64,000 nucleotides of DNA from positions 2,571 through 66,570 of the forward strand of contig JALSIC010000052.1 of the NCBI GenBank assembly GCA_026981935.1, written 5' to 3'. The notes beneath the pieces are model-generated. The model was not told where the DNA came from, did no database searches, and was given only the letters and a program-made list of their open reading frames with translations. How positions within the stretch are numbered: position 1 is the first letter of the stretch; each line of letters opens with the position of its first letter. The position numbers were made by a program, and so were the translations under genes. Source of the stretch: Gammaproteobacteria bacterium (GTDB lineage: Bacteria; Pseudomonadota; Gammaproteobacteria; SZUA-140). Of this stretch, positions 3,206 through 63,608 are shown piece after piece.

Positions 3206-3206
3206 T

Positions 3207-3965
3207 ATGCAAAGTTTAAGCTGGCTGCTTGGGGCTTTCTTCCTTCCCTTGTTTCCAATGAGCCTGCTCTTCAGCAGGGTTTGGCAAGGCCTCGGTTCCA
3301 CCAGGATGCGTGTGCTCCTGATTTTGCTGTGGCCTCTGCCGGGGGTTTTTGTTCTGGATGCAATGGATCCTTTAATACCATCCTGGCTGGCGATATGGGC
3401 ACTGGCAACGTCCATGCTATATGGTCTTAGAGCGGTTGCCATCAAAGAGGCCAGTGTCTGGGTGGGGTATATGGCGATTTCGGCCTGGTCTTTGGGATGG
3501 TTGATTTTTGCCGTAAGCGATAATCCTGTGTCTCCGATTGCGTATGTTCTATCATTCTCGGCCTCATTTGCATTGCTGACGATGATTATCGGTGAGATAG
3601 AACATGGCTACGGTGCGGCTTATGCCGGCATTGTCACAGGGTTGGCGCAGGATCAAAAGGCACTTTCTGCATTGTTCGTCATATTTATTTTGTCAGCAAT
3701 CGCAACCCCGTTTTTCCCTACCTTTTTTGTGTTGTTGGGGAATATTGCCCAAGTCTCAGGGGTGAGGTTGTTTGCGGCTGTGATAGCAGCACTTGTATGG
3801 CTGGTATGGAGCTGGTCAGCGATGCGTCTGATTCAAGGTCTGCTGGTTGGAACATCTGGCAAAAGAGTGCCACCGCTTCTGACGAAAAGGAAAATTGCCG
3901 TTTATGGGGTTTTGGCATCCTTACTTGTTGTAAGCGCTCTTATTGATCTTGGAGGCTTAAGATGA
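3207..3965 (+). CDS. Polytopic membrane protein of unknown function, translationally coupled between dabB and dabA; possibly a degenerate antiporter-like (NuoN/M-type) fragment
   Basis: 252 aa, roughly 6-7 hydrophobic segments. The start is 1 nt after the dabB stop, and its stop overlaps the dabA start (AAGATGATT, ATGA overlap). The stretch MAISAWSLGWLIF ... TPFFPTFFVLLGNI is weakly reminiscent of the C-terminal half of PF00361 proteins. It has the same low GC as its neighbours. Confidence 0.55.
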   Translation: MQSLSWLLGAFFLPLFPMSLLFSRVWQGLGSTRMRVLLILLWPLPGVFVLDAMDPLIPSWLAIWALATSMLYGLRAVAIKEASVWVGYMAISAWSLGWLIFAVSDNPVSPIAYVLSFSASFALLTMIIGEIEHGYGAAYAGIVTGLAQDQKALSALFVIFILSAIATPFFPTFFVLLGNIAQVSGVRLFAAVIAALVWLVWSWSAMRLIQGLLVGTSGKRVPPLLTKRKIAVYGVLASLLVVSALIDLGGLR

Positions 3966-6900: not shown

Positions 6901-7081
6901 GGAAAGTGTGAAAACTGCCATAGGGCGGGTTGCAAGCGTCAGAAAGCTTCTGCAAAACGAGTGGATTCACATGGCAGTTGTAGATCCAATATCTGGAGGT
7001 GTATATAGATATTGTGCTGGTGATTGGAAAGCGTATGACATTGGAGATCTGCATGCAGGTCGGGAGGCAGCTGCGATATGA
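3962..7081 (+). CDS. dabA: DabA-like inorganic carbon transporter subunit (DUF2309/UPF0753, PF10070), catalytic beta-CA-like partner of DabB
   Basis: 1039 aa. The N-terminal IPRFWPMRSFIHHNPLHGLE is typical of DUF2309. MFCIDTRSE carries the Cys-x-Asp motif, and VVGHGSQSQNNPYESALDCGACGG carries a His followed by Cys 15 residues later; this matches the 4-residue metal-site pattern described for DabA. Starts and stops are coupled with the ORFs on both sides. Confidence 0.85.
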   Translation: MIGEGLKAQVRTMVFLAGEPIPRFWPMRSFIHHNPLHGLEKMKFEQAVEKGEQLFHGRAYLPRDLYQQYLRDGKIDECILEACITKFASMQTRIEGVELEKWLKSLVYSFPRNVISRDHFIPQSVMNSDITSVLQGRFVREAAGMDCEELTLKLEDVLIHRGSIQEIIDKLFGTELASQLDDLIVRNCLNFFDEGQAAWEMPSRENGFFNAWLAVFGKSGSFMLSKRVLQEVLESVTCPEEAIIYVMRNFKIPESHWQSYFQRELTRLHGWAGFIRWRSSALHYYFTRKYPGDLVDYLAIRLILSHALVDKQVASSMPKNMEDLKGYIRENTTRAYLAYQYHSGNVIPSFAHRIEKALFSGKQTRVESVATDYFHYERESIATQHAQNLRRLSTSVNAEQQLLALDADGIGNLVRCIEKFERREGLYWLKAMEEKAINELLRNISLMPSKQLVNRKRPFVQAMFCIDTRSERLRRHLENVGDYQTFGIAGFFGVPVSFMEIDKGTEVHLCPVLLTPKNLIMEMSVSGVQDTVALSIIEKVVHELKETVLAPYVTVEAIGLLFGLDMFGKTMMPVVYNRWRTKLHKHKPFTHLLIDKLSREQADSIVRAVQRALISKAIEIEFKLSPEQVNDDVVRELREVALGNIDHADSFQKLFNVDDVRLNEFIEQLRDVYRVNKSESRHQMERLGRIGFTLDEQVTFVSQALQAIGLTKVFSRFVLVVGHGSQSQNNPYESALDCGACGGNVGLHNARIFAGMANKPAVRQRLRAIGIDIPDDTWFIPALHNTTIDEIIMYDLDLVPATHLIYLDRLRQGLTAACRLCAKERIPELGEDIYPVSNGVRKAMRNALDWSQVRPEWGLSRNAYFIIGRRGMTRNISLEGRAFMHSYDYRVDHNLILLENILTGPLVVAQWINMEHYFSAVDNESYGSGSKVYHNVAGRFGVMTGNIGDLRTGLPAQTVLMNGKPYHEPLRLMTLIESPLESVKTAIGRVASVRKLLQNEWIHMAVVDPISGGVYRYCAGDWKAYDIGDLHAGREAAAI

Positions 7082-16575: not shown

Positions 16576-16938
16576 CGGAGTCGGCCGGGCAGTCGCTCCG
16601 CCAGCGGCGCGGCCGGTGGCGGGGAGGAAAGTCCGGGCTCCACAGGGCAGGGTGCCAGGTAACGCCTGGGCGGCGCGAGCCGACGGCCAGTGCAACAGAA
16701 AACATACCGCCACCCCGCCATTGCGGCGGGAGGTAAGGGTGAAAAGGTGCGGTAAGAGCGCACCGCGCTGGTGGTAACACCAGTGGCAGTGTAAACCCCA
16801 CCCGGAGCAAGACCAAATAGGGGAACGAGAGTGTGGCCCGCACTGTTCCCGGGTAGGTCGCTAGAGGCGTGCGGTGACGTGCGTCCCAGATGAATGACTG
16901 TCCCCGACAGAACCCGGCTTACAGGCCGGCTCCGTTTT
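16576..16938 (+). ncRNA. rnpB: RNase P RNA, bacterial type A (M1 RNA)
   Basis: Collinear with E. coli M1 RNA: GGAGGAAAGTCCGGGCTCCACAGGGCAGGGTGCCAGGTAACGCCTGGG...CAGTGCAACAGAAAACATACCGCC...GGTAAGGGTGAAAAGGTGCGGTAAGAGCGCACCGC...GGTAACA...GTAAACCCCACCCGGAGCAAGACCAAATAGGG...CCCGGGTAGGTCGCTAGAGG...CAGATGAATGACTGTCC...ACAGAACCCGGCTTACAG. The P1 strands GGAGTCGGCC / GGCCGGCTCC pair. Ends are approximate (+/-5 nt). Confidence 0.95.
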
Positions 16939-30139: not shown

Positions 30140-31035
30140 TGGGCGGCGCCGCACCGGTCGCCTGGCGGGGCGAGCTGCGCCGCGAAGAGCCCCTGGCGCG
30201 CCATACGTCCTGGCGCGTGGGCGGGCCGGCGGAGCGTTTCTATCGCCCCCTGGACCTGGACGATCTGGCGGCCTTTCTGGCCTCGCTGCCACCGGAGGAG
30301 CCGGTCTTTTGGCTGGGGCTGGGGAGCAATCTGCTGGTGCGCGACGGCGGCATTCGCGGCACGGTGATCTGTACCAGCGGGATGCGCCAGGGCCTGAGGC
30401 GCCTGGACGCCACCCGCCTGTACGCCGAGGCCGGGGTGCCCTGTGCCAGGGTGGCCCGTTTCAGCGCCCGGTGCGGGCTCGCCGGCGCGGAGTTCCTGGT
30501 GGGCATTCCCGGCACCCTGGGCGGGGCCCTCGCCATGAACGCGGGCGCCTTCGGCGGTGAGACCTGGGCGCGGGTCGCGGCCGTGGAGACGCTGGACCGC
30601 CAGGGCCGGCGCCGGCGCCGCCAGCCCGGCGAGTACGTGGTGGGTTACCGGGAGGTGCGGGGTCCCGAAGGGGAGTGGTTCGTGGCGGCGGAACTGGCCC
30701 TCGAGGAAGACGATCCGGCGGCCGTCCAGGCCCGGCTCAAGGCATTGCTCGCGCGCCGGGGCAGCACCCAGCCCACGGGACAGCCCAGTGGCGGTTCGGT
30801 TTTCCGCAATCCGCCCGGCGATCACGCCGGCCGGCTCATCGAGGCCTGCGGTCTCAAGGGGCACGCCGTGGGCGGTGCCCGGGTTTCGGAGAAACATGCC
30901 AATTTCATCATCAACGACGGCACGGCCACGGCCCGCGACATCGAGCGGCTCATCGAATATGTGGCCGAGACGGTGGCGCGCCGCCAGGGCGTGCACCTGG
31001 TACCCGAGGTCCACATCGTGGGAGCGGCGGCATGA
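30136..31035 (+). CDS. murB: UDP-N-acetylenolpyruvoylglucosamine reductase MurB
   Basis: [16 protein letters not shown]...[21 protein letters not shown]...[25 protein letters not shown]. Confidence 0.93.
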
Positions 31036-32036
31036 ACGCGGCGAGGGATGCAGCGGTCTTCGGCCGGGTGGCCGTGCTCATGGGCGGCCGCGCAGCGGAG
31101 CGGGAGATTTCCCTGCGCAGCGGCGCGGCGGTGCTGGCGGCCCTGCAGCGCCAGGGGGTGGATGCGGCGGGCATCGACACCGGCCGGGCGGGAGGCGCTG
31201 CAATCCTGCGCGAGCTGATGGCGGGCGGTTTCGACCGGGCCTTTGTCGTGCTGCACGGGCGGGGCGGCGAGGACGGGGTCATCCAGGGTGCCCTGGAGAC
31301 CATCGGCCTGCCCTATACCGGCAGCGGCGTGCTGGCCTCGGCGCTGAGCATGGACAAGCTGCGCAGCAAGCAGCTCTGGCAGGGCGTGGGCCTTCCCACG
31401 CCGCCCTTTGCCGCCGTCCGCGACAAATCATCCCTGGAGAAGGCCATGGCCCGGGTGGGCCTGCCCGCCATTGTCAAGCCCGTCCACGAGGGCTCCAGCC
31501 TGGGCATGAGCCGCGTGACGGCGCCCGGGGAGCTGCTGGCGGCCTGGCGGGCGGCGCGGGCGCTGGACGACGAAGTGCTGCTGGAACGCTGGGTGACGGG
31601 CAGGGAGTACACGGTGGCCGTCCTGGGGGCGGAGGCCCTGCCGCCGATCCGCATCGAGACCCCGCGGGGCTTTTATGACTATGCAGCCAAGTACGAGGCG
31701 GACGATACCCGCTTCCACTGTCCTTGCGGCCTGCCCGGCGAGGAGGAAGGGGCATTGCGGACCCTGGCGCTGGATGCGTTCCGGGCCCTGGGATGCCGGG
31801 GCTGGGGGCGGGTGGATCTCATCTGTGACGAGCAGGGCCGGCCCTGGCTCATCGAGGTGAATACCGTGCCGGGCATGACGGACCACAGCCTGGTGCCCAG
31901 GGCCGCGCGGGCGGCGGGCATGGATTTCGACGAACTGGTCTGGCGCATCCTGGAACAGAGTCTGGAACAGGGTCCAGAACAGAATCTGGAACAGAATGGG
32001 GGACAGGCTATGTCAGGGGAGGGGCCGACATCATGA
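31032..32036 (+). CDS. ddl: D-alanine--D-alanine ligase
   Basis: GRVAVLMGGRAAEREISLRSG...FVVLHGRGGEDGVIQGALETIGLPYTGSGVLASALSMDK...EVNTVPGMTDHSLVP. ATGA overlap with murB. Has a low-complexity C-terminal tail (EQSLEQGPEQNLEQNGG). Confidence 0.92.
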   Translation: MNAARDAAVFGRVAVLMGGRAAEREISLRSGAAVLAALQRQGVDAAGIDTGRAGGAAILRELMAGGFDRAFVVLHGRGGEDGVIQGALETIGLPYTGSGVLASALSMDKLRSKQLWQGVGLPTPPFAAVRDKSSLEKAMARVGLPAIVKPVHEGSSLGMSRVTAPGELLAAWRAARALDDEVLLERWVTGREYTVAVLGAEALPPIRIETPRGFYDYAAKYEADDTRFHCPCGLPGEEEGALRTLALDAFRALGCRGWGRVDLICDEQGRPWLIEVNTVPGMTDHSLVPRAARAAGMDFDELVWRILEQSLEQGPEQNLEQNGGQAMSGEGPTS

Positions 32037-35389: not shown

Positions 35390-35783
35390 GGCGCGGGGCG
35401 GTCTCTTCAGGGTCGGGGAGTGCCGGCCGCTAATTTCAGGGCGTGGCGGATAGCCGGTCCTGCGAAAGGGTCCTGGCGCTTCGGCCCGGATGGCCGCCAG
35501 GGGGTGCGGAAGGCGTGTAACGGCATGAAGATTCAAGATTTTCATGCCGGGGCAGTCGAAGTTATGGATCATCCATGGAGATGTGACGGCATTCCTGGGC
35601 AGCATGGGGGGGCTGTGCTAAGATGCGCGCGGTCTGCGGGCAATGTTGTCCTCGATGCGACGGGCAGGCGGCGGACCGCCACCGCGGGGGGCGGCATGCG
35701 TGCGTGGCGCGTGTGTCCGCATTCCTCACTGGCCTCACAGGGTTTCCTGCTGGGTTCAATACTGGGTTCAATACTGGGCAGGC

Positions 35784-36698
35784 ATGACGAGACAGCGTAC
35801 CTTGAAAAATCCCATCCGGGCGAGAGGCCGCGGCCTGCGCGTGAGGCGCCGGATTCACCTGACCCTGCTGCCGGCGCCTGCGGATACCGGCATCGTGTTC
35901 CGCCGGGTAGACCTGCCGGGCAGGCCCAGGATTCCCGTCTGCCCGGGCAATTTGGATCCGGCCGAGTCCCGTCTGACCCTGAGATCCCCGGCCGCCGGAG
36001 GGAATGCGAGCGTGACGGGGGTGGAACATCTGCTGTCGGCCTTCGCCGGGCTGGGGGTGGACAACGTCTGCATCGAAACCGATGCGCCGGAGCTGCCCGT
36101 CATGGATGGCAGTGCCGGGCCCTTCGTCTTTCTGGTTCAGGCGGCGGGCATCACCGAGCTTGCGGCGGCGAGGCGCTTCATACGCCTGCGCCGGCGGGTG
36201 GAGGTGGCGCTGGGCCGGAGCTGGGTGCGCCTCGAACCCTATGACGGCTTCAAGGCCTCGGTCACCCTGGGCCCGGATCATCCCGGTTGCGAGGGCCAGC
36301 CGCAGGCCGTGAGCATCGATTTTTCCACGGCTTCCTTCATCAAGGAAATCAGCCGGGCACGCAATTTACTCGGCACGGCCCCCGCCGCCCCTGGGGCCGG
36401 CGCGGCTGCCTGCGCCGCAGGGCGGGACGACGATGCGGGAAGCGGCATGCGGCGCGAGACGGCACCCGGGGGTGAGGGGCCGCGTTATCGTGATGAATTC
36501 GTCAAGCACAAGCTGCTGGATGCCATCGGTGATCTCTATCTCCTGGGTCATCCCCTGATGGCGGCCTACAGTGCCTATCAGGCCGGCCACGCCCTCAACA
36601 GGCGTCTGCTGGATACCCTGCAGGCCAATCCCGAGACCTGGGAGAGCGTGATCTTCGATGGGGCCGCGGCGGTGGATCTGCGCCGGGCCGGTTCCTGA
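35784..36698 (+). CDS. lpxC: UDP-3-O-acyl-GlcNAc deacetylase LpxC (with a divergent low-complexity 40-aa segment)
   Basis: MTRQRTLKNPIRARGRGLRVRRRIHLTLLPAPADTGIVFRRVDL...TGVEHLLSAFAGLGVDNVCIETDAPELPVMDGSAGPFVF...EFVKHKLLDAIGDLYLLGH...SGHALN is collinear with the Pseudomonas/E. coli LpxC I recall. The Zn-ligand motifs (HKxxD, E-H) are present. The start at 35784 is preferred over the track start at 35643. Confidence 0.88.
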   Translation: MTRQRTLKNPIRARGRGLRVRRRIHLTLLPAPADTGIVFRRVDLPGRPRIPVCPGNLDPAESRLTLRSPAAGGNASVTGVEHLLSAFAGLGVDNVCIETDAPELPVMDGSAGPFVFLVQAAGITELAAARRFIRLRRRVEVALGRSWVRLEPYDGFKASVTLGPDHPGCEGQPQAVSIDFSTASFIKEISRARNLLGTAPAAPGAGAAACAAGRDDDAGSGMRRETAPGGEGPRYRDEFVKHKLLDAIGDLYLLGHPLMAAYSAYQAGHALNRRLLDTLQANPETWESVIFDGAAAVDLRRAGS

Positions 36699-43010: not shown

Positions 43011-43261
43011 GGTGAATCCTCCAACTGGAAATCGGCAAAACGCGTTTTATACCAGAACGTGACACCGCTGACAAGGCAGCAGGTCTGAGATCTCATGATT
43101 GAAGGGACGCGATGGGTTGTGGGCATGGAGTAGGCAGCCTGAATGAATATTTACGGGACTGGCAGGGTATCCGGAAAGTCAGCGGCCATCCCTGCCTCCA
43201 TGCTGCCATTTCGATCGCCCATTTTGTCGCTTTGACCCCCTGTGTGCCACGTTACTTTCGT

Positions 43262-43389
43262 GTCATTTCGACCGAAGGAAGGAATCCTGTCCCGCTGCTT
43301 CAAGATTTCTCGCTGCGCTCGAAATGACAGGTGCTGCATCGAAATGACAGGTATTGCATCGAAATGACAAGGTACTGCATTGAAATGGC
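43262..43389. repeat. REP/MITE-like palindromic element (one full copy 43262-43328) followed by three ~20-bp tandem partial units (GCATCGAAATGACAGGTNNT)
   Basis: GTCATTTCGACCGAAGGAAGGAATCCTGTCCCGCTGCTTCAAGATTTCTCGCTGCGCTCGAAATGAC, then AGGTGCTGCATCGAAATGAC / AGGTATTGCATCGAAATGAC / AAGGTACTGCATTGAAATGGC. Same family as 10950 and 48001-48403. Confidence 0.8.
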
Positions 43390-43437: not shown

Positions 43438-44067
43438 CTACGGTGAGGCCTTCGTTGAGGCTGGATCGATCTCAGGGTTGTCTGCGGGCAGGCGTTGCCA
43501 GACACGCCGCTTGTTGAGATAGAGCAGAAAGGTGAGCAGCACGAGATAGGCGAGGACATAGCGGCCCAGGCGATGCCGCTCCTCCGCCCGCGGATCGGCC
43601 GCCCAGGCGAGGAACAGGGCCACTTCCCGTGCCGTCCTGTCCACGGCCGCCTGGTTGCCGGGACTGGAGCTGCCCAGGGCATCGGGCATCTTGATGCCGG
43701 GGAAGAGCCGGTTGTCCACGCGGCCTTCCGGCGTGGTGTAGAAACTGGTGAGCAGGGTATAGACGTAGGCCGGCCCGCCTTCCCGCGCCTTGGCGATGAG
43801 AAACAGGCCCAGCCCGTAGAGATCTTTGATGGTGTAGTAGGGATGGAAGGGGATCTGTGCCGATTTCGGCAGGTCGATGCCGGTGGGGTTGCTGCTCTTC
43901 ACGTAGTGCAGGGCGACCAGGTGCATGAAGACCATTGCGAAGATGATGAAAGGGAACAGGAAGTGCAGCACGAAGAAACGGTTCAGGGTGGCATCGCCGA
44001 TGGCGTAGTCGCCACGCAGCCACAGCACCACCTCGTCGCCGATGAAGGGGGTGGCGCATTCTCTCAC
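43438..44067 (-). pseudogene. Remnant in-frame fusion of a cytochrome b fragment (central region) with a cytochrome c1 fragment (C-terminal region); bc1-complex gene debris
   Basis: The N-terminal 90 aa (DATLNRFFVLHFLFPFIIFAMVFMHLVALHYVKSSNPTGIDLPKSAQIPFHPYYTIKDLYGL) match the bH/bL second-His-pair region of cytochrome b. The rest (IAKAREGGPAYVYTLLTSFYTTPEGRVDNRLFPGIKMPDA...VALFLAWAADPRAEERHRLGRYVLAYLVLLTFLLYLNKRRVW) matches the cytochrome c1 C-terminus including the TM anchor. The cyt b N-terminal third, the c1 CXXCH haem site and any Rieske gene are absent. The ORF starts exactly at the radC stop. Confidence 0.75.
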
Positions 44068-46096: not shown

Positions 46097-46523
46097 TCCC
46101 CGGCTGGGCCGGGAGCTGCCCCTGCCCCGCTATGCCACCGACGGGGCCGCCGGCATGGACCTGCGGGCCTGTCTGGACGGGCCCCTGGTGCTCGCTCCCG
46201 GTGAGTCGGCACTCATTCCCACGGGACTGGCCATCCACATCGCCGATCCCGGGCTGGCGGCGGTGATCCTGCCCCGCTCGGGCCTGGGGCACAAGCACGG
46301 CATCGTCCTGGGCAACCTGGTGGGCCTGATCGATTCGGATTACCAGGGCCAGGTCCTCGTCTCCTGCTGGAACCGGGGCGAGGCCCCCTTTACCATTGAG
46401 GTGGGCGAGCGCATCGCGCAGATGGTGTTCGTGCCGGTGGTGCAGGCGGATTTCGAGATCGTCGAGGAATTCGCGGCCAGCCGGCGCGGCGCCGGGGGAT
46501 TCGGCCACACCGGCCGTCATTGA
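46068..46523 (+). CDS. dut: dUTP diphosphatase
   Basis: [16 protein letters not shown]...[27 protein letters not shown]... shows the canonical dUTPase motifs. Overlaps the coaBC end. Confidence 0.95.
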
Positions 46524-46579
46524 GTCTTGCCGATCCGGGTTGCGCGTTTGACGTTTCCGAAAAAGAGAAGGAGTGCACC

Positions 46580-47968
46580 GTGAATTCCCAGCTGCCGGAC
46601 ATCCCGTCGTCCATCTTCAAGGCCTACGACATTCGTGGCATCGTGGGCGAGACCCTCACCCCGGATATCGTCCGGTGCATCGGCCAGGCCATCGGGAGTG
46701 TCGCCGCGGCGCGTGGTCAGGCCGCGGTGGCCGTGGCGCGCGACGGGCGCCTGTCGGGTCCCGAGTTCGTCGCCGCGCTCGGCGACGGACTGCAGGCCGC
46801 CGGCCGCCGGGTCATCGATCTGGGCAGGGTGCCCACGCCGGTGCTCTATTTCGCCACGCACGAGCTGGACACCCGCTCCGGTGTCATGGTGACGGGCAGC
46901 CACAACCCGCCGGCGTACAACGGCTTCAAGATCGTGGTGGACGGCGAGACACTCTCCGGCGAGGCCATCCAGGACCTGCGGCGCCGGATCCTGGCGTCCG
47001 ACTACGTCACGGGGCAGGGCAGCCACGAGACCGAGGAGATCCTGCCCCGTTATCTTGCGCGCATCACGGGTGACGTGCGGCTGGCCAGGCCCCTCAAGGT
47101 GGTGGTGGACTGTGGCAACGGCGTCGCCGGCGCGGCAGCGCCCGCCCTGCTGCGCCGGCTGGGCTGCGAGGTCAGCGAGCTGTTCTGCACCGTGGACGGC
47201 CATTTTCCCAACCACCACCCCGACCCCAGCCAGACGGAGAATCTCGCCGACCTCATCGATGCAGTACGAAGGGAGGGTGCCGATGTGGGCCTGGCCTTCG
47301 ACGGCGATGGCGACCGCCTCGGCGTGGTGGATGCCACGGGGCGCATCATCTGGCCGGACCGCCAGATGATGCTCTATGCCGCCGACATTCTCTCCCGGCA
47401 TCCCGGGGCGGAGATCATCTACGACGTGAAATGTTCCCGCCACCTGGGCCGGGTGATCGAGGAGCACGGCGGCCGGCCGCTCATGTGGCGTACCGGCCAT
47501 TCCCTCATCAAGGCCAAGATGCGGGAAGACGGCGCCCTGCTGGCCGGCGAGATGAGCGGCCACATCTTCTTCAAGGAGCGCTGGTACGGTTTCGACGACG
47601 CCCTGTATGCGGCGGCGCGCCTGCTGGAGATTCTCGCCCGGGAAGCGCGTCCGCCCGCCGCGGTGTTCGCGGATCTGCCCGACGCCGTATCCACGCCGGA
47701 GCTGCGGGTGGAGATGGCCGAGGGGGAGCATTTCCGCTTCATGGAGCGCTTCGCCGCGGCGGCGCATTTTCCCGGTGCGCGGCTTTCCACCATCGACGGC
47801 ATCCGCGCCGATTTCGCTGACGGCTGGGGCCTGATCCGGCCCTCCAATACCACGCCCTGCCTCATCATCCGCTTCGAGGCCGACGACGAAGCCGCCCTGG
47901 CGCGCATCCAGACCTTGTTTCGCAAGGCCATCCTGGCCCTCGAGCCCGGCCTGCAATTGCCTTTCTGA
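46580..47968 (+). CDS. algC: Phosphomannomutase / phosphoglucomutase (AlgC-type)
   Basis: IFKAYDIRGIVGETLTPDIV...GVMVTGSHNPPAYNGFKIV (active-site Ser)...DGDGDRLGVVD...GEMSGHIFF is collinear with P. aeruginosa AlgC. GTG start at 46580, 8 nt after AGAAGGAG, giving MNSQLPDIPSSIF. The track start at 46520 would add ~20 unlikely residues overlapping dut. Confidence 0.9.
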   Translation: MNSQLPDIPSSIFKAYDIRGIVGETLTPDIVRCIGQAIGSVAAARGQAAVAVARDGRLSGPEFVAALGDGLQAAGRRVIDLGRVPTPVLYFATHELDTRSGVMVTGSHNPPAYNGFKIVVDGETLSGEAIQDLRRRILASDYVTGQGSHETEEILPRYLARITGDVRLARPLKVVVDCGNGVAGAAAPALLRRLGCEVSELFCTVDGHFPNHHPDPSQTENLADLIDAVRREGADVGLAFDGDGDRLGVVDATGRIIWPDRQMMLYAADILSRHPGAEIIYDVKCSRHLGRVIEEHGGRPLMWRTGHSLIKAKMREDGALLAGEMSGHIFFKERWYGFDDALYAAARLLEILAREARPPAAVFADLPDAVSTPELRVEMAEGEHFRFMERFAAAAHFPGARLSTIDGIRADFADGWGLIRPSNTTPCLIIRFEADDEAALARIQTLFRKAILALEPGLQLPF

Positions 47969-48000: not shown

Positions 48001-48403
48001 GTCATTGCGGCCGAACCTCCCTCTCATTTCGACCTCACTCCCTTGTCATTTCGACCGCAGGGAGAAATCCTGTGCCGGTGACCCAAGATTCCTCGCTGCG
48101 CTCGGAATGACAAAAAAGGGGGAATGACAAAGAAGTGTCATTTCGCCCGCAGGGAGAAATCCTGTGCCGGTGACCCAAGATTCCTCGCTGCACTCGGAAT
48201 GACAAAAAAGATGGAAAGAATTGTCATTTCGACCGAAGGAAGAAATCCTGCCCACCGTCCCAGGATTCCTCGCTGCGCTCGGAATGACAAAAAAGATGGA
48301 AAGAATTGTCATTTCGACCGAAGGGAGAAATCCTGCCCACCGTCCCAGGATTCCTCGCTGCGCTCGGAATGACAGGGATACTGTCATTCCTCGCTGCGCT
48401 CGT
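48001..48403. repeat. Tandem array of REP/MITE-like palindromic elements: 4 full ~67-bp copies (48044-48110, 48136-48202, 48222-48289, 48308-48374) plus partial copies at each end, separated by near-identical 19-25-bp A-rich linkers
   Basis: Unit: GTCATTTCGACCG(A/C)AGGGAGAAATCCTG - 12 nt - (CC)AGGATTCCTCGCTGCGCTCGGAATGAC. The arms form an imperfect ~28-bp inverted repeat. Copies 1/2 are nearly identical to each other, as are copies 3/4; the linkers are AAAAAAGATGGAAAGAATT. Period 86-92 bp. Confidence 0.85.
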
Positions 48404-49349
48404 CAGTGTCCCCCGGGGCGCGATAGGCGCCCCGCACCTTCATGATCTCCTTGGGCCAGCGGCGCTTGGTGCATTGCCACTGTCCGGGACGGGCGCGGAT
48501 GAGGTCGGCGATGGCCCGGTTCATGGCGGCGGTGATTTCCTCGAGGCTCTTGTGCGCCTCCCCCGGGGCGTGGACGGCCGGGTGGATGACACTGCGAAAG
48601 CGCGCGTCTCCCAGGCGCTCGGTGTGCACGGGGACGATGGCGCAGTCGAATCTGCGCGCCAGCCAGGCGGGCAGCGGGGTGGTCGCGGCCGGCGCCCCGG
48701 CGAAGGGGACGGAGAGGCCGTCGTCGATGCGCACGTCCACGTGCAGGCCCACGGAGCGGCCCTGCTTCAGGCTGGCAATGAGGCGCCTCAGGGCGTTTTC
48801 CTTGGGGATGAGCGTTTGTCCCAGTGCCGTTCTCCGGGCCGCGACCAGCCGTTCCAGGCCGGGATTGACCTGCGGGTTGTAGACCAGGTCCACAGGATAA
48901 CCCAGGGAATGGATGGCATAGCCGGAGAGTTCCCAGTTGCCCAGGTGGGGCGCCACGAAGACACAGGGCCGTTTGCGGGCCAGGAAATCGGGATCCCGGT
49001 TTTCGCACACGACCTCCAGGGAGGCGAACTCACAGTCGGGATCGATGATGGCGGCGAAGTGGGGGAATTCCGCCAGCGAGGCGCCCAGGTTGCCCCAGAC
49101 GGCGCGGGCCAGGGCGGTGATTTCGGCTTCGTCCCTCTCCGGACACAGCATGCGCAGATTGGCCAGCACGTGGCGGTGCTTGCGGCTGCGGGGGCCGAGG
49201 GTTTCCAGCAGCCGGCGCCCGAAACGGGAGGCGCGCGCCGGGGACAGGCGGCCGGAAAGCCACCAGAAGGCCTTGAGCAGCATGACCTGTTGCCGCCACG
49301 ACCAGGGCGGGCGCGCCGGGGGGGCGTGTTGCCTGGTTTTCCCGTCCAC
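48384..49349 (-). CDS. Lipid A biosynthesis acyltransferase, LpxL/LpxM (HtrB/MsbB) family, paralog 1
   Basis: ...RHVLANLRMLCPERDEAEITALARAVWGNLGASLAEFPHF...CVFVAPHLGNWELSG...VDLVYNPQVNPGLERLV...GRSVGLHVDVR...RPGQWQCTKRRWPKE. GTG start at 49349, chosen by alignment with paralog 2; the track start at 49610 overlaps paralog 2. The last 5 codons and the stop lie in a REP-element arm. Confidence 0.8.
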   Translation of the reverse strand: MDGKTRQHAPPARPPWSWRQQVMLLKAFWWLSGRLSPARASRFGRRLLETLGPRSRKHRHVLANLRMLCPERDEAEITALARAVWGNLGASLAEFPHFAAIIDPDCEFASLEVVCENRDPDFLARKRPCVFVAPHLGNWELSGYAIHSLGYPVDLVYNPQVNPGLERLVAARRTALGQTLIPKENALRRLIASLKQGRSVGLHVDVRIDDGLSVPFAGAPAATTPLPAWLARRFDCAIVPVHTERLGDARFRSVIHPAVHAPGEAHKSLEEITAAMNRAIADLIRARPGQWQCTKRRWPKEIMKVRGAYRAPGDTDERSEE

Positions 49350-49354
49350 GTCGT

Positions 49355-51467
<2,113 letters not shown>

Positions 51468-53153: not shown

Positions 53154-54065
53154 TCAACGCTCTGTCCTCTGTCCTCTGTCCTCTGTCCTCTGTTCCACCA
53201 GCCCCAGCAGATATTGCCCGTAGCCGTTGTTCTGCATGGGCTCGGCGAGGCGACGGACCTGGGCCGCATCGATGTAGCCCATGCGATAGGCGATTTCTTC
53301 GGGGCAGGCGATCTTGAGCCCCTGGCGTTGTTCGATGATCTCGATGAAGGCGGCGGCCTGTTGCAGGGACTCGTGGGTGCCGGTGTCCAGCCAGGCCGTG
53401 CCGCGGCCCATGCGTTCGACGCGGAGCTGGCCTCGCGCCAGGTAGGCGAGGTTGACGTCCGTGATTTCCAGCTCGCCGCGTGCCGAAGGCGTGAGGCGGC
53501 GGGCGATGTCCACGACCTGGTTGTCATAGAAATAGAGTCCCGTGACGGCGTAATGGGAGCGGGGCCTGGCCGGTTTTTCCTCCAGGCCCACGGCCTGGCC
53601 CGCGGCATCGAATTCCACCACGCCGTAGCGTTCCGGGTTCTTGACGTAATAGCCGAATATGGTCGCCCCTTTTTCGTGTGCCGCCGCGGCCTGCAGGCTG
53701 CGAGCCAGTCCGTGGCCATAGAAGATGTTGTCCCCCAGCACCAGGGTGACGGGGTCCGGGCCGATGAAGTCGGCACCGATGAGAAAGGCTTCGGCCAGGC
53801 CGTTGGGCCGGGGTTGCGGGGCATAGTGAAACGCCAGTCCCCACTGCCTGCCATCGCCCAGCAGCTCGCGAAAGCGCGGCAGGTCCTGGGGCGTGGAGAT
53901 GACGAGAATATCGCGGATGCCCGCCAGCATGAGCGTGGAGAGGGGGTAATAGATCATGGGCTTGTCGTACACCGGCAGGAGCTGCTTGCTCAGCACCCGG
54001 GTGAGGGGGTAGAGGCGGGTGCCCGAGCCCCCGGCCAGGATGATGCCCTTGCGCGTGGCGCTCAT
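53154..54065 (-). CDS. rfbA: Glucose-1-phosphate thymidylyltransferase RmlA/RfbA (C-terminal tail encoded by a 7-bp tandem repeat)
   Basis: [56 protein letters not shown]... The C-terminal ...[13 protein letters not shown] is encoded on the minus strand by GGACAGA units (CTCTGTC on the plus strand). Confidence 0.93.
53159..53188. repeat. 7-bp tandem repeat (CTCTGTC on plus / GGACAGA on minus, >=3-4 units then CTCTGTT) inside the 3' end of rfbA
   Basis: The read sequence is GCTCTGTCCTCTGTCCTCTGTCCTCTGTTCC. My manual count (3 full units) and the frame implied by the ORF-track translation (4 units) differ by one unit, so the copy number should be recounted computationally. Confidence 0.7.
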
Positions 54066-55177
54066 TGTCGGCCCTCGCCTGCCCGGTGTTTTTTCCCGAG
54101 TCCCAGGCGCTCGCCCCGGTAGGCGCCGGATGTGACGCGTTCACACCAGTCGCGGTGGTCCAGGTACCATTGCACGGTCTTGCGCAGACCGCTGTCGAAG
54201 GTTTCTTCCGGGCGCCAGCCCAGCTCGCGCTGGATCTTGCCGGCATCGATGGCATAACGCCGGTCATGGCCGGGACGGTCGGTCACAAAGCGGATCAGGC
54301 GCCGGTAGGGGCCCGCCGGGTCGGGGGCCAGTTCGTCCAGCAGGGTGCAGAGTGTGGTGACCACGGTGAGGTTGGTCTGCTCGTTGTGGCCGCCGATGTT
54401 GTACACCTCGCCCGGGCGTCCCGCCGCGAGTACCCGGCAGATGGCCCGGCAGTGGTCGATGACATAGAGCCAGTCGCGGACATGGCCGCCGTCGCCGTAG
54501 ACGGGCAGGGGTTTTCCCGCCAGGGCGCTGAGTATGGTGAGGGGGATGAGCTTTTCCGGAAACTGGTAAGGCCCGTAGTTGTTGGAGCAGTTGGTGGTCA
54601 GCACCGGCAGGCCGTAGGTATGGAAATAGGCCCGTACCAGATGATCGGAAGCGGCCTTGGAGGCGGCGTAGGGCGAGTTGGGGGCATAGGCTGTCTGTTC
54701 GGTGAAATAGCCCGTTTCCCCCAGGCTGCCGTAGACCTCGTCGGTGGAGACGTGGAGAAAGCGGAAACGCGCCTGTTCTTCCGGCGGCAGGCCTTCCCAG
54801 TGAGCGCGCGCCGCCTCCAGCAGTTCGAAGGTGCCCACGACATTGGTGTGGATGAAATCCCCGGGCGCGTCGATGGAGCGGTCCACGTGGGATTCGGCGG
54901 CGAAATGGATGATGGCGCAAGGACGGTGTTCCGCCAGGAGGCAGCGCACCAGGGCCCGGTCACGGATGTCACCGCGGACGAAAACATGACGGGGGTCTTC
55001 CAGTACCGGTGCCAGCGTGTCCAGATTGCCGGCATAGGTCAGGGCGTCCAGGTTGACGACCTGGATGTCGGCCTCCCGCTGGAGCAGGTCCAGGACGAAA
55101 TTGGCGCCGATGAAACCGGCGCCGCCGGTGACCAGGAGCGTCCGGTCTCCAGGCTTGCGTTCAGGGGTGAAAGACAT
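54062..55177 (-). CDS. rfbB: dTDP-glucose 4,6-dehydratase RmlB/RfbB
   Basis: [15 protein letters not shown]...[49 protein letters not shown] (catalytic YxxxK). Overlaps the rfbA start by 4 nt. Confidence 0.93.
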
Positions 55178-60022: not shown

Positions 60023-60099
<77 letters not shown>

Positions 60100-60158
60100 T
60101 CTTGCTGATCTATTGTTTCCTGCATCCCCTGATCAATCCTGTCCACAAGGCGCGGGGA

Positions 60159-60434
60159 ATGGCCATGCCTGTCGGATCCTGCGGTGAGGTGGTATCGCTC
60201 ACGGACCTCAAGACCAATCCGGGCCGGGTGGTGAAACACACCGCCGAGACCCACCGGCCCGTGCTGGTCACCCGCCGCGGGCGGGGCGTGGCCGTGGTGC
60301 AGTCGGTAACGGAATTCGAGACCGCCGAGGAGGAGCGCGCCTTCATGCGCGCCGTGGTGGTGGGCCTGGCCGATCTGGATGCGGGACGCGAAGTCAGTCT
60401 GGCGGAGGCCCGGGCACGGCTCGGCCTGAAATAG
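60159..60434 (+). CDS. Phd/YefM-type antitoxin (apparently orphan: no cognate toxin downstream)
   Basis: VVSLTDLKTNPGRVVKHTAETHRPVLVTRRGRGVAVVQSVTEFETAEEE fits the Phd/YefM N-terminal fold pattern. The start at MAMPVGS (ATG 60159) is preferred over the track start at 60066. Only 73 bp follow before the convergent YgiT-type gene. Confidence 0.5.
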   Translation: MAMPVGSCGEVVSLTDLKTNPGRVVKHTAETHRPVLVTRRGRGVAVVQSVTEFETAEEERAFMRAVVVGLADLDAGREVSLAEARARLGLK

Positions 60435-60507
60435 CCCTGTGCCGACCCCGCCGTCACATAAGGTGGGTAGCGCCGGCCGCCCCAAGTTGAGGTCACAAAA
60501 TGTGATC

Positions 60508-60729
60508 TCAAGCCGCATAACGCAGGATTTCCAGCTCCGCCGATTCATCCACGCCCTTCAACATTTCTTCTACGCGCGACATGACCCGATCTTCCAGCAG
60601 ATACTCTCCGCATTGGCTGCATTGCAATACCGGGAGCTCCTTGAAGATGACGATGCGCCTGGCATCGAGCTTGAAGGGCAAATCGGATGTAGTGGCGACG
60701 AATTCACCCTCGCAAACGTGACATTTCAT
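60508..60729 (-). CDS. YgiT-type zinc-finger protein (MqsA-N-like), putative antitoxin partner of the upstream DUF4258 gene
   Basis: MKCHVCEGEFVATTSDLPFKLDARRIVIFKELPVLQCSQCGEYLLED: two CxxC pairs with YgiT-type spacing. ATGA overlap with the upstream DUF4258 ORF. Confidence 0.7.
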   Translation of the reverse strand: MKCHVCEGEFVATTSDLPFKLDARRIVIFKELPVLQCSQCGEYLLEDRVMSRVEEMLKGVDESAELEILRYAA

Positions 60730-61064
60730 GGCCTTTTTCTCCTCTTTAAATCGGCTTCCCAGGTCGAGGGATCGGGCCGATAGACAGTGATGATCCGCAC
60801 GTTGTCTTCCTCTTTGTCCAGTGCGAACAGTATGTGGATGATTTCCTCCTCATGCCTGGCATAAACTAGGCAACTGGGCAGATACCGGCTGGCTTGGCTC
60901 TCCGGGTAATGCTCCAGGATTTCATAGGTGGCCACGTTTTCCGTGACCATGTGCCGGCTGACCGCCCGTTGTTGCAGCCGAATGTTTGCATGATAGGTCC
61001 GGAACAGCTTGCCTTCCCGGACGTAGCGTTGGATAAATAACAAGTCAGAAGGCTGTTCATCCAT
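60726..61064 (-). CDS. DUF4258 domain protein (putative toxin of a DUF4258/YgiT pair)
   Basis: MDEQPSDLLFIQRYVREGKLFRTYHANIRLQQRAVSRHMVTENVATYEILEHYPESQASRYLPSCLVYARHEEEIIHILFALDKEEDNVRIITVYRPDPSTWEADLKRRKRP; start at the internal Met (track start 61145 rejected). Confidence 0.65.
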   Translation of the reverse strand: MDEQPSDLLFIQRYVREGKLFRTYHANIRLQQRAVSRHMVTENVATYEILEHYPESQASRYLPSCLVYARHEEEIIHILFALDKEEDNVRIITVYRPDPSTWEADLKRRKRP

Positions 61065-62149
61065 AAACCTGCTCTCCGAACCCCAGCTCCGCCAGATTCC
61101 TGGTGATGACCTCGTCCAGCCGCCGTGCCTCGGCCACCTGCTCACACCGCTGGGCGGTGAGCCGCTTCATCTTTTCATCAAAAGGTTCGCCGTCGTCTTC
61201 CTGCTTTTCCGTGCCCACGTAGCGATCAGGGGTGAGCGCGTGGCCGTGCTTGCGGATCTCACCCTCGCCGGACTGGTTGGAACTCATGGAGCCGTTGGCC
61301 AGCACGAAGCCGGCGGTGCCGGTGGGGGCCAGGTGGTGGATGATGTGCTGCACCCAGGCGAAGTTGGCGTTGCCCTTGGGCGGGGTGCCGTATTTCCAGC
61401 GGGGATCATCCTTCAGGCGCTCGTGCCCCAGTCGCTGACGTTGAAGGACGGATTGGCCAGGATGAATTCCACCGACTGTACGAACATGCCGGAGGAGCCG
61501 CAGCAGGGATCGTAAACCCGGCCCTGGTAGGGCTCCAGCATCTCCACCAGCAGCTTGACCACGCAGCGGGGCGTGTAGAACTCGCCGCCCTTTTTGCCCT
61601 CGGCGCTGGCGAACTGGGAGAGGAATACTCATAGACCCGGCCCAGCACGTCTTTGGAGCGGGCCTCCTCGTCGCTCCACCTTGATGTTGCTGATGAGGTC
61701 GATGAGCTGGCCCAGCCGCGTCTTGTCCAGCGCCGGGCGGGCGTAGTCCTTGGGCAGCACGCCTTGAGGCTGGGGTTGTCCCGCTCAATGGCGGACATGG
61801 CGTCGTCCACGAGCTGGCCGATGGTGGGCTGCCTGGCCTGTGACTTCAGGTGCGCCCAGCGCGCCTCGGGTGGCACCCAGAGGATGTTCTGGGCGCGGTA
61901 CTCGTCCGGATCCTCGGGGTCGGCGTCCTGGTCGCGCTCGGCCTCGAGCCGCGCGTGTGTCTCCTCGAAGGCGTCGGAGATGTACTTGAGGAAGATCAGC
62001 CCCAGGACGACGTGCTTGTACTCGGCCGCGTCCATGGAGCCGCGCAGGGCATCGGCCATCTGCCAGAGCTGGGCCTCGTAGCCGACGTTGGCGCCGTTGT
62101 TGGTCTTGCTTGCCGTTTTCTTCCTGGTCGTCTTCTTTTTTCCTGCCAT
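61057..62149 (-). pseudogene. hsdM: Decayed type I restriction-modification methyltransferase gene (hsdM): multiple frameshifts plus an internal deletion
   Basis: The N-terminal HsdM-N reading (MAGKKKT...[39 protein letters not shown]...[11 protein letters not shown]) breaks at CTCAAGG-CGTG (a G-run one shorter than needed). Frame is restored by an inserted A in AAGGTGGAGCGAC (...[16 protein letters not shown]), then lost again at TATTCC (a T-run one short). The C-terminal reading (..[86 protein letters not shown]...) is in a third frame. It jumps from the GEGEIRK motif straight to the (E)EIRKHGH..TPGRYVG tail, implying that ~100 codons were lost between two EIRK-encoding repeats. Confidence 0.8.
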
Positions 62150-62153
62150 GTCC

Positions 62154-62654
62154 TTAGCCGTTTGCCGCTGGTTTCAGTTGTTGCTGTTTTTCCCGCAAGT
62201 GGCTGAGGCTGCGCCACCGACCGGATTCGTTATCGTAATATTCCCAGAATTTCCAGCCGTTTGCCTGGTTTTTTGTGATGGCGCGGGCTGCCTTGGACGG
62301 GGAGTCGTAGGCCTTCTGGTTGAACCATACCTTGCCGCCCCGCACCTCGGCCTCGTAGTCGCGGGCCAGATAGTGAGCGCGCAGGCGGGTTCCGTTGGGG
62401 ATTCGACCGCCCCGGCAGTAGAGGAACCCGCTGGTCTCAGTCAATGGGCGTCTCACCATGGCCGGGGTGACATCCTCCATTTCCTGCTCGGCAACTTCCC
62501 CGTAGATCTCCCGCAAGGCCTCAAACTGCTCATCGGACATGGACACCAGATGGTAGGGCGTATTCCACAGGCCACGGGGTGTCAGGTCCTCGATGGCGGC
62601 GCCCATCTGGAGCAGGGGGGTGAGTCTGTTCTCGTGGAGGCAGATGATTTTCAT
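62154..62654 (-). CDS. Hypothetical protein upstream of the hsdM remnant (possible DUF4357-like C-terminal region)
   Basis: 166 aa. A good sigma-70 promoter (TTGACA-17-TATTCT) and AGGAG lie upstream. The C-terminal ...[37 protein letters not shown] resembles tails seen on R-M-associated GIY-YIG/DUF4357 proteins; family assignment is tentative. Confidence 0.4.
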
Positions 62655-63344
62655 AGCAACTCATGAAGCGAAAAACTCCTATTTAGAGAATAAGAGCGCA
62701 CAAGGTCGCTGTCAAGGTCCGATGTGGGAACCTGATGCTGCATTCAAATATTAGAAACAAATACAGAAAAATGGGATTTCGGCAAGGATACCCATACAAC
62801 GTATGCCGAGGCGACGAATGCGTTGGCGGGATTCAGGCTGTCGGGTGTTTTCCAGTCTATATCATCAGTTCCGTGTCTCGAATACTGGCTTCTTCTGCAT
62901 TTCACATACACCACCCGGCCATATAATCCCTCTGGCGGGAGGAGTGCTTGTGATTGCCTGATCGGCGAGCTGCGAAACTATATGCCCGGGCCTACCATCT
63001 CGATGAGTTGTTGCAGAAACTGCTGGCCAACCCACGATCGACATCCTCGATGCCGCTAATACTGGTGGGGATCGCCAGGACTTCCTGAAGCGCAGGGACT
63101 TTCGACAGAATATCCAGGTTGGCGCGCTGCATTGCGCCTCGGGGTACCGGGTACGCCGTGCGGCGTTCTCGGCAACGACCCGCCCAGCCCCAGCAAGCTG
63201 GAAGCTGTATGCTGGGGTATAAAGTCATTCGCGGCCCTAAAGCTGGGTGTTCTTTCGCTAGTGATCCTTGGTGAAGCGTTATTATTTGGACAGGATTACA
63301 CTTATGTGCCACACTATACAGTCATATGGCATGAGGTTACTCTG

Positions 63345-63608
63345 ATGGCATCATCTGACAATGAGGTACAGGTCGGCGCCCAGGGCCGGGTGGTCATCCC
63401 GGCGGCGTTGCGCAAGGCCTTGAAATTAAAGCCCGGAGACCGGCTGGTGGCCCGAAAGGTCGGTGAGAGCCTGGTACTTGAGCGCCGGGAGACCGTGGAG
63501 AAGCGGTTGCGCGAGCGGTTTCGGCACATACCCGGGGACGTCAGTCTGGTGGATGAGCTGATCGCTGAGCGACGGGCCGAGGCGGCTGGTGAGGACGGGG
63601 CCCCGTGA
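63345..63608 (+). CDS. vapB: AbrB/MazE/SpoVT-type antitoxin VapB
   Basis: MASSDNEVQVGAQGRVVIPAALRKALKLKPGDRLVARKVGESLVLE shows the SpoVT/AbrB swapped-hairpin motif. GAGGT lies 9 nt upstream of the ATG at 63345. The track ORF from 63132 is rejected. Confidence 0.8.
   Translation: MASSDNEVQVGAQGRVVIPAALRKALKLKPGDRLVARKVGESLVLERRETVEKRLRERFRHIPGDVSLVDELIAERRAEAAGEDGAP

Follow-up and report, generated by a model that had tools for sequence, protein, structure and literature searches.

A candidate tunnel-less LpxC at the ftsZ locus of a gammaproteobacterial lineage

The committed step of lipid A synthesis is catalyzed by LpxC, an enzyme that has long been pursued as a target for antibiotics. Here we describe an unusual lpxC gene in a 64,000-nucleotide stretch of DNA (the window) from a gammaproteobacterium of the SZUA-140 lineage (GenBank assembly GCA_026981935.1, contig JALSIC010000052.1, positions 2,571 to 66,570). 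Where canonical enzymes carry Insert II, this gene has a run of low-complexity codons. Comparative sequence analysis indicates that the tunnel-less LpxC is real, fixed in its lineage, and part of a recurrent and so far undescribed pattern. Coordinates are those of the window, canonical residues are given in E. coli numbering, and the roles of residues are taken from published work (PMC6286764, PMC13342928, PMC13492277).

The lpxC locus and its replaced segment

34232..35389, forward strand: ftsZ, directly upstream of lpxC; it marks the canonical position in the dcw cluster and serves here as a rate yardstick
35784..36698, forward strand: lpxC coding sequence, 304 amino acids from an ATG start, defined by its open reading frame (ORF) and translation, with a PF03331 match (E 5.9e-71)
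36363..36485, forward strand: replaced segment of lpxC, Ala/Gly/Pro-rich and predicted to be a disordered linker; exactly codons 194-234, 123 bp, reading NLLGTAPAAPGAGAAACAAGRDDDAGSGMRRETAPGGEGPR

The window protein scores 239.5 bits against Pfam PF03331 (cut-off 27), which places it in the LpxC family. Against the equivalog model TIGR00325 it scores 223.3 bits, above the cut-off of 187.25, and canonical relatives score 319-391. Among solved enzymes, it matches those of P. aeruginosa (E ~1e-77) and E. coli (E ~1e-67). The gene order murD...ftsA-ftsZ-lpxC-dciA-M23-secA, found in the window and in every relative examined, puts lpxC after ftsZ at the end of the dcw cluster, as usual in Gammaproteobacteria.

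Public gene calls begin at the TTG of codon 7 (35802; 298 aa) instead of the ATG at 35784. The upstream-ATG reading, MTRQRTLKN, fits the family N-terminus MI(K/R)QRTLKN and is kept in all relatives. The spacer between ftsZ and lpxC is 394 bp long and 91% conserved overall. It holds a 12-bp direct repeat, CTGGGTTCAATA (35749-35783), with two full copies and the beginning of a third, ending 4 bases before the lpxC ATG; the repeat is kept in L081, from the sister genome GCA_054017855.1 (also L084), and in L085 (GCA_054019195.1). A scan for promoters and terminators around lpxC returned no consensus matches.

In E. coli numbering, the replaced segment takes in Thr191 and all of Insert II (Phe192-Ala215), together with the 15 residues after it (Ile216-Arg230), which form a strand-turn-strand. 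Insert II is a beta-alpha-beta motif and supplies the greater part of the acyl-chain tunnel (PMC13492277). When the protein is aligned with P. aeruginosa LpxC, codons 194-234 have zero identities and both flanks are highly conserved. Across 70 homologues, per-column residue sharing in the segment is 18% for the window, compared with 70% for canonical pairs. From SRAR to (Y/F)xDEF the window protein has 41 residues, where 112 of 120 homologues have 40. The guanine-cytosine (GC) content of the segment is 79% and stays flat over codon positions 1, 2 and 3 (.83/.78/.76), as against.69/.51/.80 for the rest of lpxC and.71/.45/.86 for the neighboring genes.

The AlphaFold2 model of the window protein has a mean predicted local distance difference test score (pLDDT) of 81. 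Scores of 70 or more are reached by 237 of the 304 residues (90 or more by 185), nearly all of them outside residues 196-234 and the C-terminal tail (294-304, which also scores low). Residues 196-234 have a pLDDT of ~30, staying below 50 throughout, and are modeled without secondary structure. In a canonical control modeled from the same alignment, the region forms a strand-helix-strand with a pLDDT of 70-76. The best Foldseek matches of the window model are P. aeruginosa LpxC structures (template modeling score, TM, 0.81; E 3e-36). The beta-alpha-beta tunnel expected of an LpxC is missing here: the segment has no sequence similarity to it, is disordered in the model, and evolves neutrally. 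We read codons 194-234 as an unconstrained and probably disordered linker, whose richness in Ala, Gly, Pro, and Arg would be the outcome of drift in a GC-rich genome. An earlier note, made from the sequence alone, had proposed a 40-residue low-complexity replacement in LpxC that belonged to the Insert II/acyl tunnel region and might either alter interactions with substrates or inhibitors or be disordered. The replacement is real, the structure prediction agrees on the disorder, and an altered interaction is the natural reading of a segment whose presence would remove the tunnel.

The same aberrant segment occurs in at least five independent assemblies from different samples. The nucleotides of L083 (ENA ERZ27262642) are identical to those of the window, the NCBI metagenome-assembled genome (MAG) L085 differs at 6 nucleotides, and cluster members from JGI/IMG and Logan have the window protein either exactly or with 1-2 residue differences. 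In the sister genome (L081/L084, and also L082 from Logan SRR33956856), LpxC is 91% identical and has the same segment at the same length, with 15 substitutions inside it. Across the 915 bp of lpxC no indel separates the window from L084, and four sequence variants all have an uninterrupted ORF of the same length. When window and sister DNA were searched in six frames (hmmsearch) with a profile built from the canonical segment, only the gene frame matched, at its edges. Smith-Waterman comparison of the three forward frames with the segments of P0002-P0004 (P0004 being the LpxC of L095, GCA_964425105.1) gave no signal beyond the in-frame edges. A still readable compensated frameshift or a small inversion was rejected, as no readable signal was found in any frame against either the canonical or the P0002-P0004 segments.

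The GC content of the segment might arouse suspicion of an assembly or sequencing artefact, or of paired compensating frameshift errors, since an out-of-frame reading of GC-rich DNA looks like a peptide rich in Ala, Gly, Pro, and Arg. This explanation is effectively refuted by the agreement between the assemblies, by the diverged version in the sister genome with its substitutions and no indels, and by the failure of every forward and reverse frame to match a canonical or nearest-relative segment. What the earlier note took for an anomaly is by its own test, alignment with orthologs, a lineage trait, since four other assemblies and the sister genome share it. Its statement that the segment is not a compensated frameshift stands insofar as no frame restores the canonical sequence, but holds only in the sense that no frame is still readable, and an origin by indels or replacement is more probable than drift by point mutations alone. 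The trait does not reach deep and is a feature at the level of a genus: a semi-canonical segment is still present in L095, the next relative, whose FtsZ is 91% identical.

A role at the level of the nucleic acid, or a foreign insertion, is also highly improbable. The window segment folds as a long hairpin (-76.9 kcal/mol, z about -2.4, ranging from -2.3 to -2.5), its substitutions concentrate at codon position 2 so that one antisense frame has an apparent ratio of non-synonymous to synonymous rates (dN/dS) of 0.24, and repeats resembling miniature inverted-repeat transposable elements (MITEs) are present in the window. These features could point to a hairpin in the mRNA, to an antisense gene that overlaps lpxC, or to a mobile element inserted in frame, such as the palindromic ones of Rickettsia. 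However, the sister genome does not conserve the hairpin (z +1.2): eight of the pairs predicted for the window are hit by nine substitutions, all eight are broken in the sister, and the single pair-keeping substitution is a G-U change. The antisense frame has no listed ORF of at least 40 aa at this place, and stops interrupt the alternative forward frame. A second copy of the 123-bp segment was not found in the window or in any fetched locus, nor any tandem repeat, and Rfam had no match in lpxC. The hairpin, the overlapping gene, the repeat or mobile element, and a known RNA family were all rejected on these grounds.

Catalytic centre, substrate contacts and selection

35823..35858, forward strand: codons 14-25, RGRGLRVRRRIH, an Arg-rich patch with Arg for His19, replacing the conserved TGVGLH(S/T)GEKVY
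35916..36017, forward strand: codons 45-78, the region of Insert I, divergent and with 4 residues more than the family consensus has; dN/dS 0.18 versus the sister, pLDDT 81-86
36024..36029, forward strand: Glu81-His82, equivalent to Glu78 (general base) and His79 (zinc ligand), both retained (roles from PMC6286764)
36219..36221, forward strand: Ser146, replacing Lys143, a position that is Lys in 189 of 196 other LpxCs
36270..36275, forward strand: Gly163-Pro164, replacing Asp160-Phe161, with Phe in 195 of 196 other LpxCs
36507..36533, forward strand: HKLLDAIGD, in which His242, Lys243, Asp246, and Asp250 are equivalent to His238, Lys239, Asp242, and Asp246, all retained
36579..36590, forward strand: QAGH, in which Gln266 replaces Lys262, and His269, equivalent to His265 (general acid), is retained

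Glu78, His79, His238, Lys239, Asp242, Asp246, and His265 are all retained in the window protein. The three zinc ligands (His79, His238, and Asp242) and the catalytic Glu78, His265, and Asp246 are also all present in P0001, and position 265 is His in each of the 196 other LpxCs. The substrate contacts have fared differently. Seven canonical residues, each present in 187-196 of the 196 other LpxCs, are replaced: His19 by Arg, Lys143 by Ser, Phe161 by Pro, Thr191 by Asn, Phe192 by Leu, Phe194 by Thr, and Lys262 by Gln. His19 is found in 195 of the others, and position 262 is Lys or Arg in 195. Lys239 is the only substrate contact kept. In characterized enzymes, Lys143 makes a water-mediated contact with the pyrophosphate (PMC13342928). 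Asp160-Phe161 hydrogen bonds to the uracil and stacks on it, the stacking being due to Phe161 (PMC6286764). Phe192 and Phe194 form a patch beneath the glucosamine, and the Insert II channel holds the acyl chain (PMC6286764, PMC13342928).

The flagged segment is thus only what stands out most in a broader loss of residues that contact the substrate: the protein has kept its catalytic centre but not its substrate pocket. This extends the earlier note, which had concentrated on the segment: the segment is real, but Lys143, Phe161, and Lys262 are replaced as well, and LpxC is accelerated throughout the clade. The note had also considered the zinc ligands to be intact, which is true of HKxxD, although (S/A)GHALN contributes not a zinc ligand but the general acid, His265. 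The start of the gene is not fully intact as had been stated, since GLH(S/T)GEK reads GLRVRRR. The longer Insert I is altered too. The window protein is not a pseudoenzyme in the sense of a protein that has lost catalytic or metal residues while its fold is kept under selection. Six of the relatives described below are (P0125, P0136, P0161, P0169, P0170, and P0207).

Comparison with the sister genome L084 separates the segment from the rest of the gene. There are 13 non-synonymous and 2 synonymous changes in the segment, versus 7 and 25 in the conserved parts of lpxC (dN/dS 0.088; Fisher p = 6e-5 for the difference from the segment). In all, 15 of the segment's 123 nucleotides differ (12%), which is close to the dS of the gene, 0.17. 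Over the whole gene dN/dS is 0.25, and outside the segment it is ~0.09-0.14, like that of the neighboring housekeeping genes. Codons 235-295 have 0 non-synonymous and 3 synonymous changes, and the Arg-rich codons 14-25 have 1 and 3, respectively. Since both lineages carry the decayed segment, the decay came first and the purifying selection seen in this comparison later, which implies that the LpxC protein is still useful.

These data bear directly on whether lpxC is a pseudogene in the course of decay, whose ORF survives because stop codons are rare in DNA of 68% GC. Long spurious ORFs are indeed common in the window, the nearby pet (cytochrome bc1) operon is visibly broken, so that the lineage does lose genes, and LpxC is strongly accelerated in the clade. 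However, dN/dS outside the segment has been low since the split from L084, not a single indel separates the two genes, and all the catalytic residues are intact while the adjacent 41 codons are randomized. The frame is not disrupted and the whole-gene dN/dS is not near 1, making a pseudogene very improbable.

Relatives, recurrence and the wider window

Housekeeping proteins order the clade as ((window, L084), L095), L087. Synteny between L095 and the window is identical from the dcw cluster to coaBC, with FtsA 95%, FtsZ 91%, and SecA 89% identical, while LpxC is only 58% identical. The L095 protein (P0004) keeps the GGTVDNTVLVD..GVLNEDGLR half of the segment, and its helix is shortened and variable. 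Between the window and L095, lpxC has a dN of 0.34 and a dN/dS of 0.36, as against 0.06-0.18 for neighboring genes. In the outgroup L087, whose LpxC is P0125, identity to the window is 0.85-0.90 for FtsZ and 0.48 for LpxC; the region is truncated to 22 residues, and D242A and K239R have occurred. Among 66 canonical genomes, pairs with an FtsZ-core identity of 0.85-1.0 have an LpxC identity of 0.83-0.92, and never below 0.71. Values of 0.48-0.58 at an FtsZ identity of 0.85-0.91 are out of step with the housekeeping neighbors and mean that LpxC is strongly accelerated in this clade.

LpxCs of the P0002-P0004 type look like an intermediate state in sequence. P0004 shares with the window Thr191Asn and the loss of Lys143. 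Unlike the window protein, proteins of this type keep His19 (Tyr in P0003), Phe161, Lys262, and the motif GGT(V/L)DNTVLVD..GVLNEDGLR, and the Insert II helix alone is variable and has lost 3-4 residues. A single clade thus holds a graded series, running from the canonical enzyme to a shortened helix (P0004), a randomized segment (window), and a truncated region with a lost zinc ligand (P0125).

How the segment arose can be approached through L095. The segment is 15 nt longer in the window, and only its edges align at the nucleotide level, the interior being no more similar than shuffled sequence (z 0.25-0.43). Positional similarity to the family is likewise significant at the edges only. With a dS of ~0.35-0.95 between the two genomes, point substitution alone should, by our own estimate, leave ~65% nucleotide identity. 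In-place decay by substitution only was therefore judged insufficient, and the mismatch suggests that indels or replacement were involved. These processes, rather than point substitutions alone, probably produced the segment, through an event that is itself no longer readable in the sequence. Alternatively, the LpxC tree may differ from the species tree, which would also explain why His19Arg and Lys262Gln are common to the window and P0125.

An exhaustive HMMER search of 1.84 billion representatives returned nothing with more than 50% identity besides the gene's own cluster, and many of the best matches are LpxC-like proteins that likewise lack a canonical Insert II. Twelve further departing representatives were considered (P0125, P0136, P0139, P0143, P0145, P0148, P0161, P0169, P0170, P0179, P0185, and P0207). 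The Thr191-Arg230 region is cut to 12-29 aa in 10 of the 12, and in P0136 and P0148 the T191-F194 edge is kept and an interior of 31 aa replaced. Lys143 is absent in 11 and Phe161 in 10, and none keeps Lys262 (two have Arg). Some have lost catalytic or zinc residues: P0125 carries D242A and K239R, P0136 has E78S, and P0161 has E78S, H79P, and D242S. These uncharacterized proteins share the window's pattern: they keep the residues of the fold, their Insert II is cut short or replaced, and almost all have other residues in place of Lys143, Phe161, and Lys262. They differ in that most are truncated in the region and several lack catalytic residues, whereas the window protein is full length and has lost none. 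The ftsA-ftsZ-lpxC-dciA locus was found for all seven of the degenerate LpxCs whose context was looked up. In an unbootstrapped neighbor-joining tree of FtsZ and SecA, the genomes with a degenerate LpxC fall into at least two separate groups. Insert II has apparently been lost completely twice within the window clade and, according to this tree, again in a separate Pseudomonadales-like group (L090, L091, and L092). We found no paper on an LpxC without Insert II, on LpxC pseudoenzymes, or naming these MAGs.

The genome of P0143 is AT-rich, with a very reduced gene order on a 509-kb contig. In L090 (JGI Ga0450804_3229775) and L091 (Ga0604623_0000016), the locus reads ftsW-murC-ftsQ, with murG, murB, and ddl missing. 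In the AT-rich L099 and L100 the order is gyrB-ftsA-ftsZ-lpxC-dciA-secA. This reduction of the dcw cluster in other degenerate-LpxC lineages suggests that the decay of LpxC accompanies a wider loss of envelope genes.

Elsewhere in the window and its relatives, several other features were noted. The pet operon is broken differently among close relatives (window 43438-44067, reverse strand; L084 7045-9487; L095 17157-19668). Two deletions in the window and L083 have left an ORF of 209 aa in which a piece from the middle of cytochrome b is joined to the C-terminus of cytochrome c1. In L084, cytochromes b and c1 are intact and the Rieske gene stops after 70 aa, and in L095 all three genes are intact. 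The retained pieces have a dN/dS of ~0.05, which indicates that the deletions are recent. The MITE-like repeats, ~85 nt long with inverted ends TGTCATTTCGA...TCGGAATGACA, lie at 43261-43344 (one copy, between the pet remnant and rpmB) and 48044-48343 (four tandem copies, downstream of the second acyltransferase gene described below), and a copy is also found in L084. The ddl reading frame (31032-32036) ends 12 nt earlier than in the sister, probably because of an indel near the 3' end; its dN/dS of 0.36, from a crude ungapped comparison, is the highest of the neighbors. At 1508-7081 on the forward strand, genes for a proton-antiporter subunit resembling DabB (1508-3205) and for DabA (3962-7081, E 2.7e-252) lie on either side of an ORF of 252 aa that has no match in Pfam. 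Together the three constitute an inorganic-carbon uptake module, which fits an autotrophic lifestyle. The filter used for likely genes, GC3 minus GC2 (third and second codon positions), was failed by the ORFs of this module and passed by the remaining window genes. A class A RNase P RNA (333 bits) lies at 16577-16937, and one tRNA gene at 60023-60096, both on the forward strand. From 60066 to 63605 there is a patchwork of small genes, with antitoxin domains of the Phd/YefM and MazE families, part of an N6 DNA methylase (profile positions 141-200 only), and a RAMA-domain protein; it looks like a degraded defense or mobile island beside the tRNA gene.

Possible functions and significance

The window protein shares with canonical LpxC (E. 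coli and P. aeruginosa; PDB 4MDT, 3P3E, and 2VES) the PF03331/TIGR00325 families, the predicted beta-alpha-alpha-beta fold, the position after ftsZ, and the zinc ligands and catalytic residues with Asp246 and Lys239. It differs in lacking an ordered Insert II tunnel, in the seven replaced contacts and altered Insert I, in its lower TIGR00325 score, and in its far faster rate. Considered jointly, these data lead us to favor, with a probability of about 0.62, a reading in which Insert II has been destroyed and turned into a neutral linker while the rest of LpxC is selected, as part of a recurrent process that would mark a shift away from the canonical, tunnel-dependent enzyme. Insert II and the adjoining hairpin have been destroyed, the linker changing at an approximately neutral rate and having drifted to GC-rich Ala, Gly, Pro, and Arg codons. 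The two-domain fold, the zinc site, and the acid/base pair persist under purifying selection, with the contacts to uridine diphosphate-3-O-acyl-N-acetylglucosamine (UDP-3-O-acyl-GlcNAc) almost all replaced. In this clade, and in one or more further gammaproteobacterial lineages, the lpxC of this locus outpaces its neighbors by far and lacks Insert II, and some lineages lack catalytic residues as well. The constraint to bind the canonical substrate via a closed acyl tunnel would have been lifted in these lineages. After a burst of change, the LpxC of the window lineage would then have settled under new constraints. Most likely, the window protein is a zinc hydrolase that recognizes its substrate differently or far less well, or a protein retained for a second role, and it is probably not a textbook LpxC.

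49355..50284 and 48384..49283, reverse strand: tandem pair of PF03279 genes (lipid A late acyltransferase family), both intact, with Pfam and NCBIfam matches
53157-55177, reverse strand: full-length homologues of rmlA and rmlB

Several observations weigh against the reading of a lineage released from its tunnel. All seven zinc and catalytic residues are intact, including Lys239, and the protein could still be the cell's lipid A deacetylase, using an open groove. The intact and constrained PF03279 genes, together with rmlA and rmlB, are all that the window holds with a bearing on the lipid A pathway; they fit continued lipopolysaccharide synthesis and hint, though not decisively, at a need for LpxC activity. 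His19Arg and Lys262Gln are common to the window and P0125, yet L095 branches between them, so that either parallel change or an LpxC tree differing from the species tree is needed. The segment's non-synonymous excess is not significantly above neutrality (p = 0.17), and the independent origins depend on a neighbor-joining tree of two proteins without bootstrap values. As for the PF03279 genes themselves, their dN/dS values versus the sister are 0.18 and 0.15, both score below all NCBIfam equivalog cut-offs, and one of their orthologues, from Thiogranum longum, bears the name 'KDO2-lipid IV(A) lauroyltransferase'. At 46520-47968 there is a gene of the phosphomannomutase type.

It is rather unlikely that the window protein is still the cell's only fully functional LpxC. 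The tunnel would then be dispensable, the acyl chain lying in an open groove or against the membrane, and the Arg-rich patch RGRGLRVRRR would have taken over phosphate binding. In keeping with this, the gene sits at the canonical locus after ftsZ, its zinc ligands, catalytic residues, and Lys239 are under strong purifying selection, its score exceeds the TIGR00325 cut-off, the PF03279 genes and rmlAB are intact, and five Arg of the N-terminal patch are conserved through synonymous changes. However, seven contact residues, each found in at least 95% of the 196 LpxCs, have been lost along with Insert II. Moreover, P0125 has lost the zinc ligand Asp242 and Lys239, and other lineages have lost Glu78 and His79; such losses would not be tolerable if the locus had to supply LpxC activity in those lineages.

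Another suggestion, which we put forward tentatively, is that the ftsZ-linked LpxC has a second role that does not need the UDP-acyl-GlcNAc pocket. Once lipid A deacetylation was lost or supplied elsewhere, by an unlinked lpxC or an unknown enzyme, the protein would persist as a zinc hydrolase without a tunnel and, in some lineages, as a pseudoenzyme. A search for a second lpxC, seeded with the LpxC of the nearest canonical relative, returned only metagenome proteins that could not be attributed. In two hydrothermal MAGs, a fully canonical lpxC is located away from ftsZ, between pyrD and a MgtC/DUF4010 gene (L001 3001-3912; L002 2174-3080). An unlinked location is thus possible in some Gammaproteobacteria, neither MAG being linked to the window clade. 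If the second-role suggestion is true, there would be a recurrent, undescribed class of LpxC-derived proteins in free-living and symbiotic Gammaproteobacteria, and either outer membranes without lipid A or a route to lipid A that is independent of LpxC.

Two known systems can be compared with the preferred reading of a tunnel-less, still-selected LpxC. LpxH2, a homologue of LpxH, does not complement an lpxH deletion, and LpxH's substrate-binding cap is reported not to be conserved in sequence in it (PMC6286764). It offers a precedent in the same pathway, but as a separate paralogue able to coexist with LpxH, whereas the window gene is an altered orthologue at the ancestral locus. Caulobacter crescentus survives without LpxC given anionic sphingolipids and the inactivation of fur (PMC9393093). 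This provides a route by which the constraint on LpxC could be lifted, although in a laboratory genotype of an alphaproteobacterium.

The Insert II tunnel is where most LpxC inhibitors bind (PMC13492277, PMC13342928). It is unexpected that natural orthologues, still in their ancestral place and under purifying selection, should lack this tunnel and the UDP contacts, and it would mean that the inhibitor target site and a presumed essential substrate module are dispensable in nature. The tunnel may be less indispensable than thought, which would matter for resistance and for the enzyme's mechanism. A second function of LpxC may keep the protein, with consequences for how envelope synthesis is coupled to cell division. 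Finally, lipid A may have been dispensed with or its synthesis rerouted in these lineages, which would bear on the evolution of the outer membrane.

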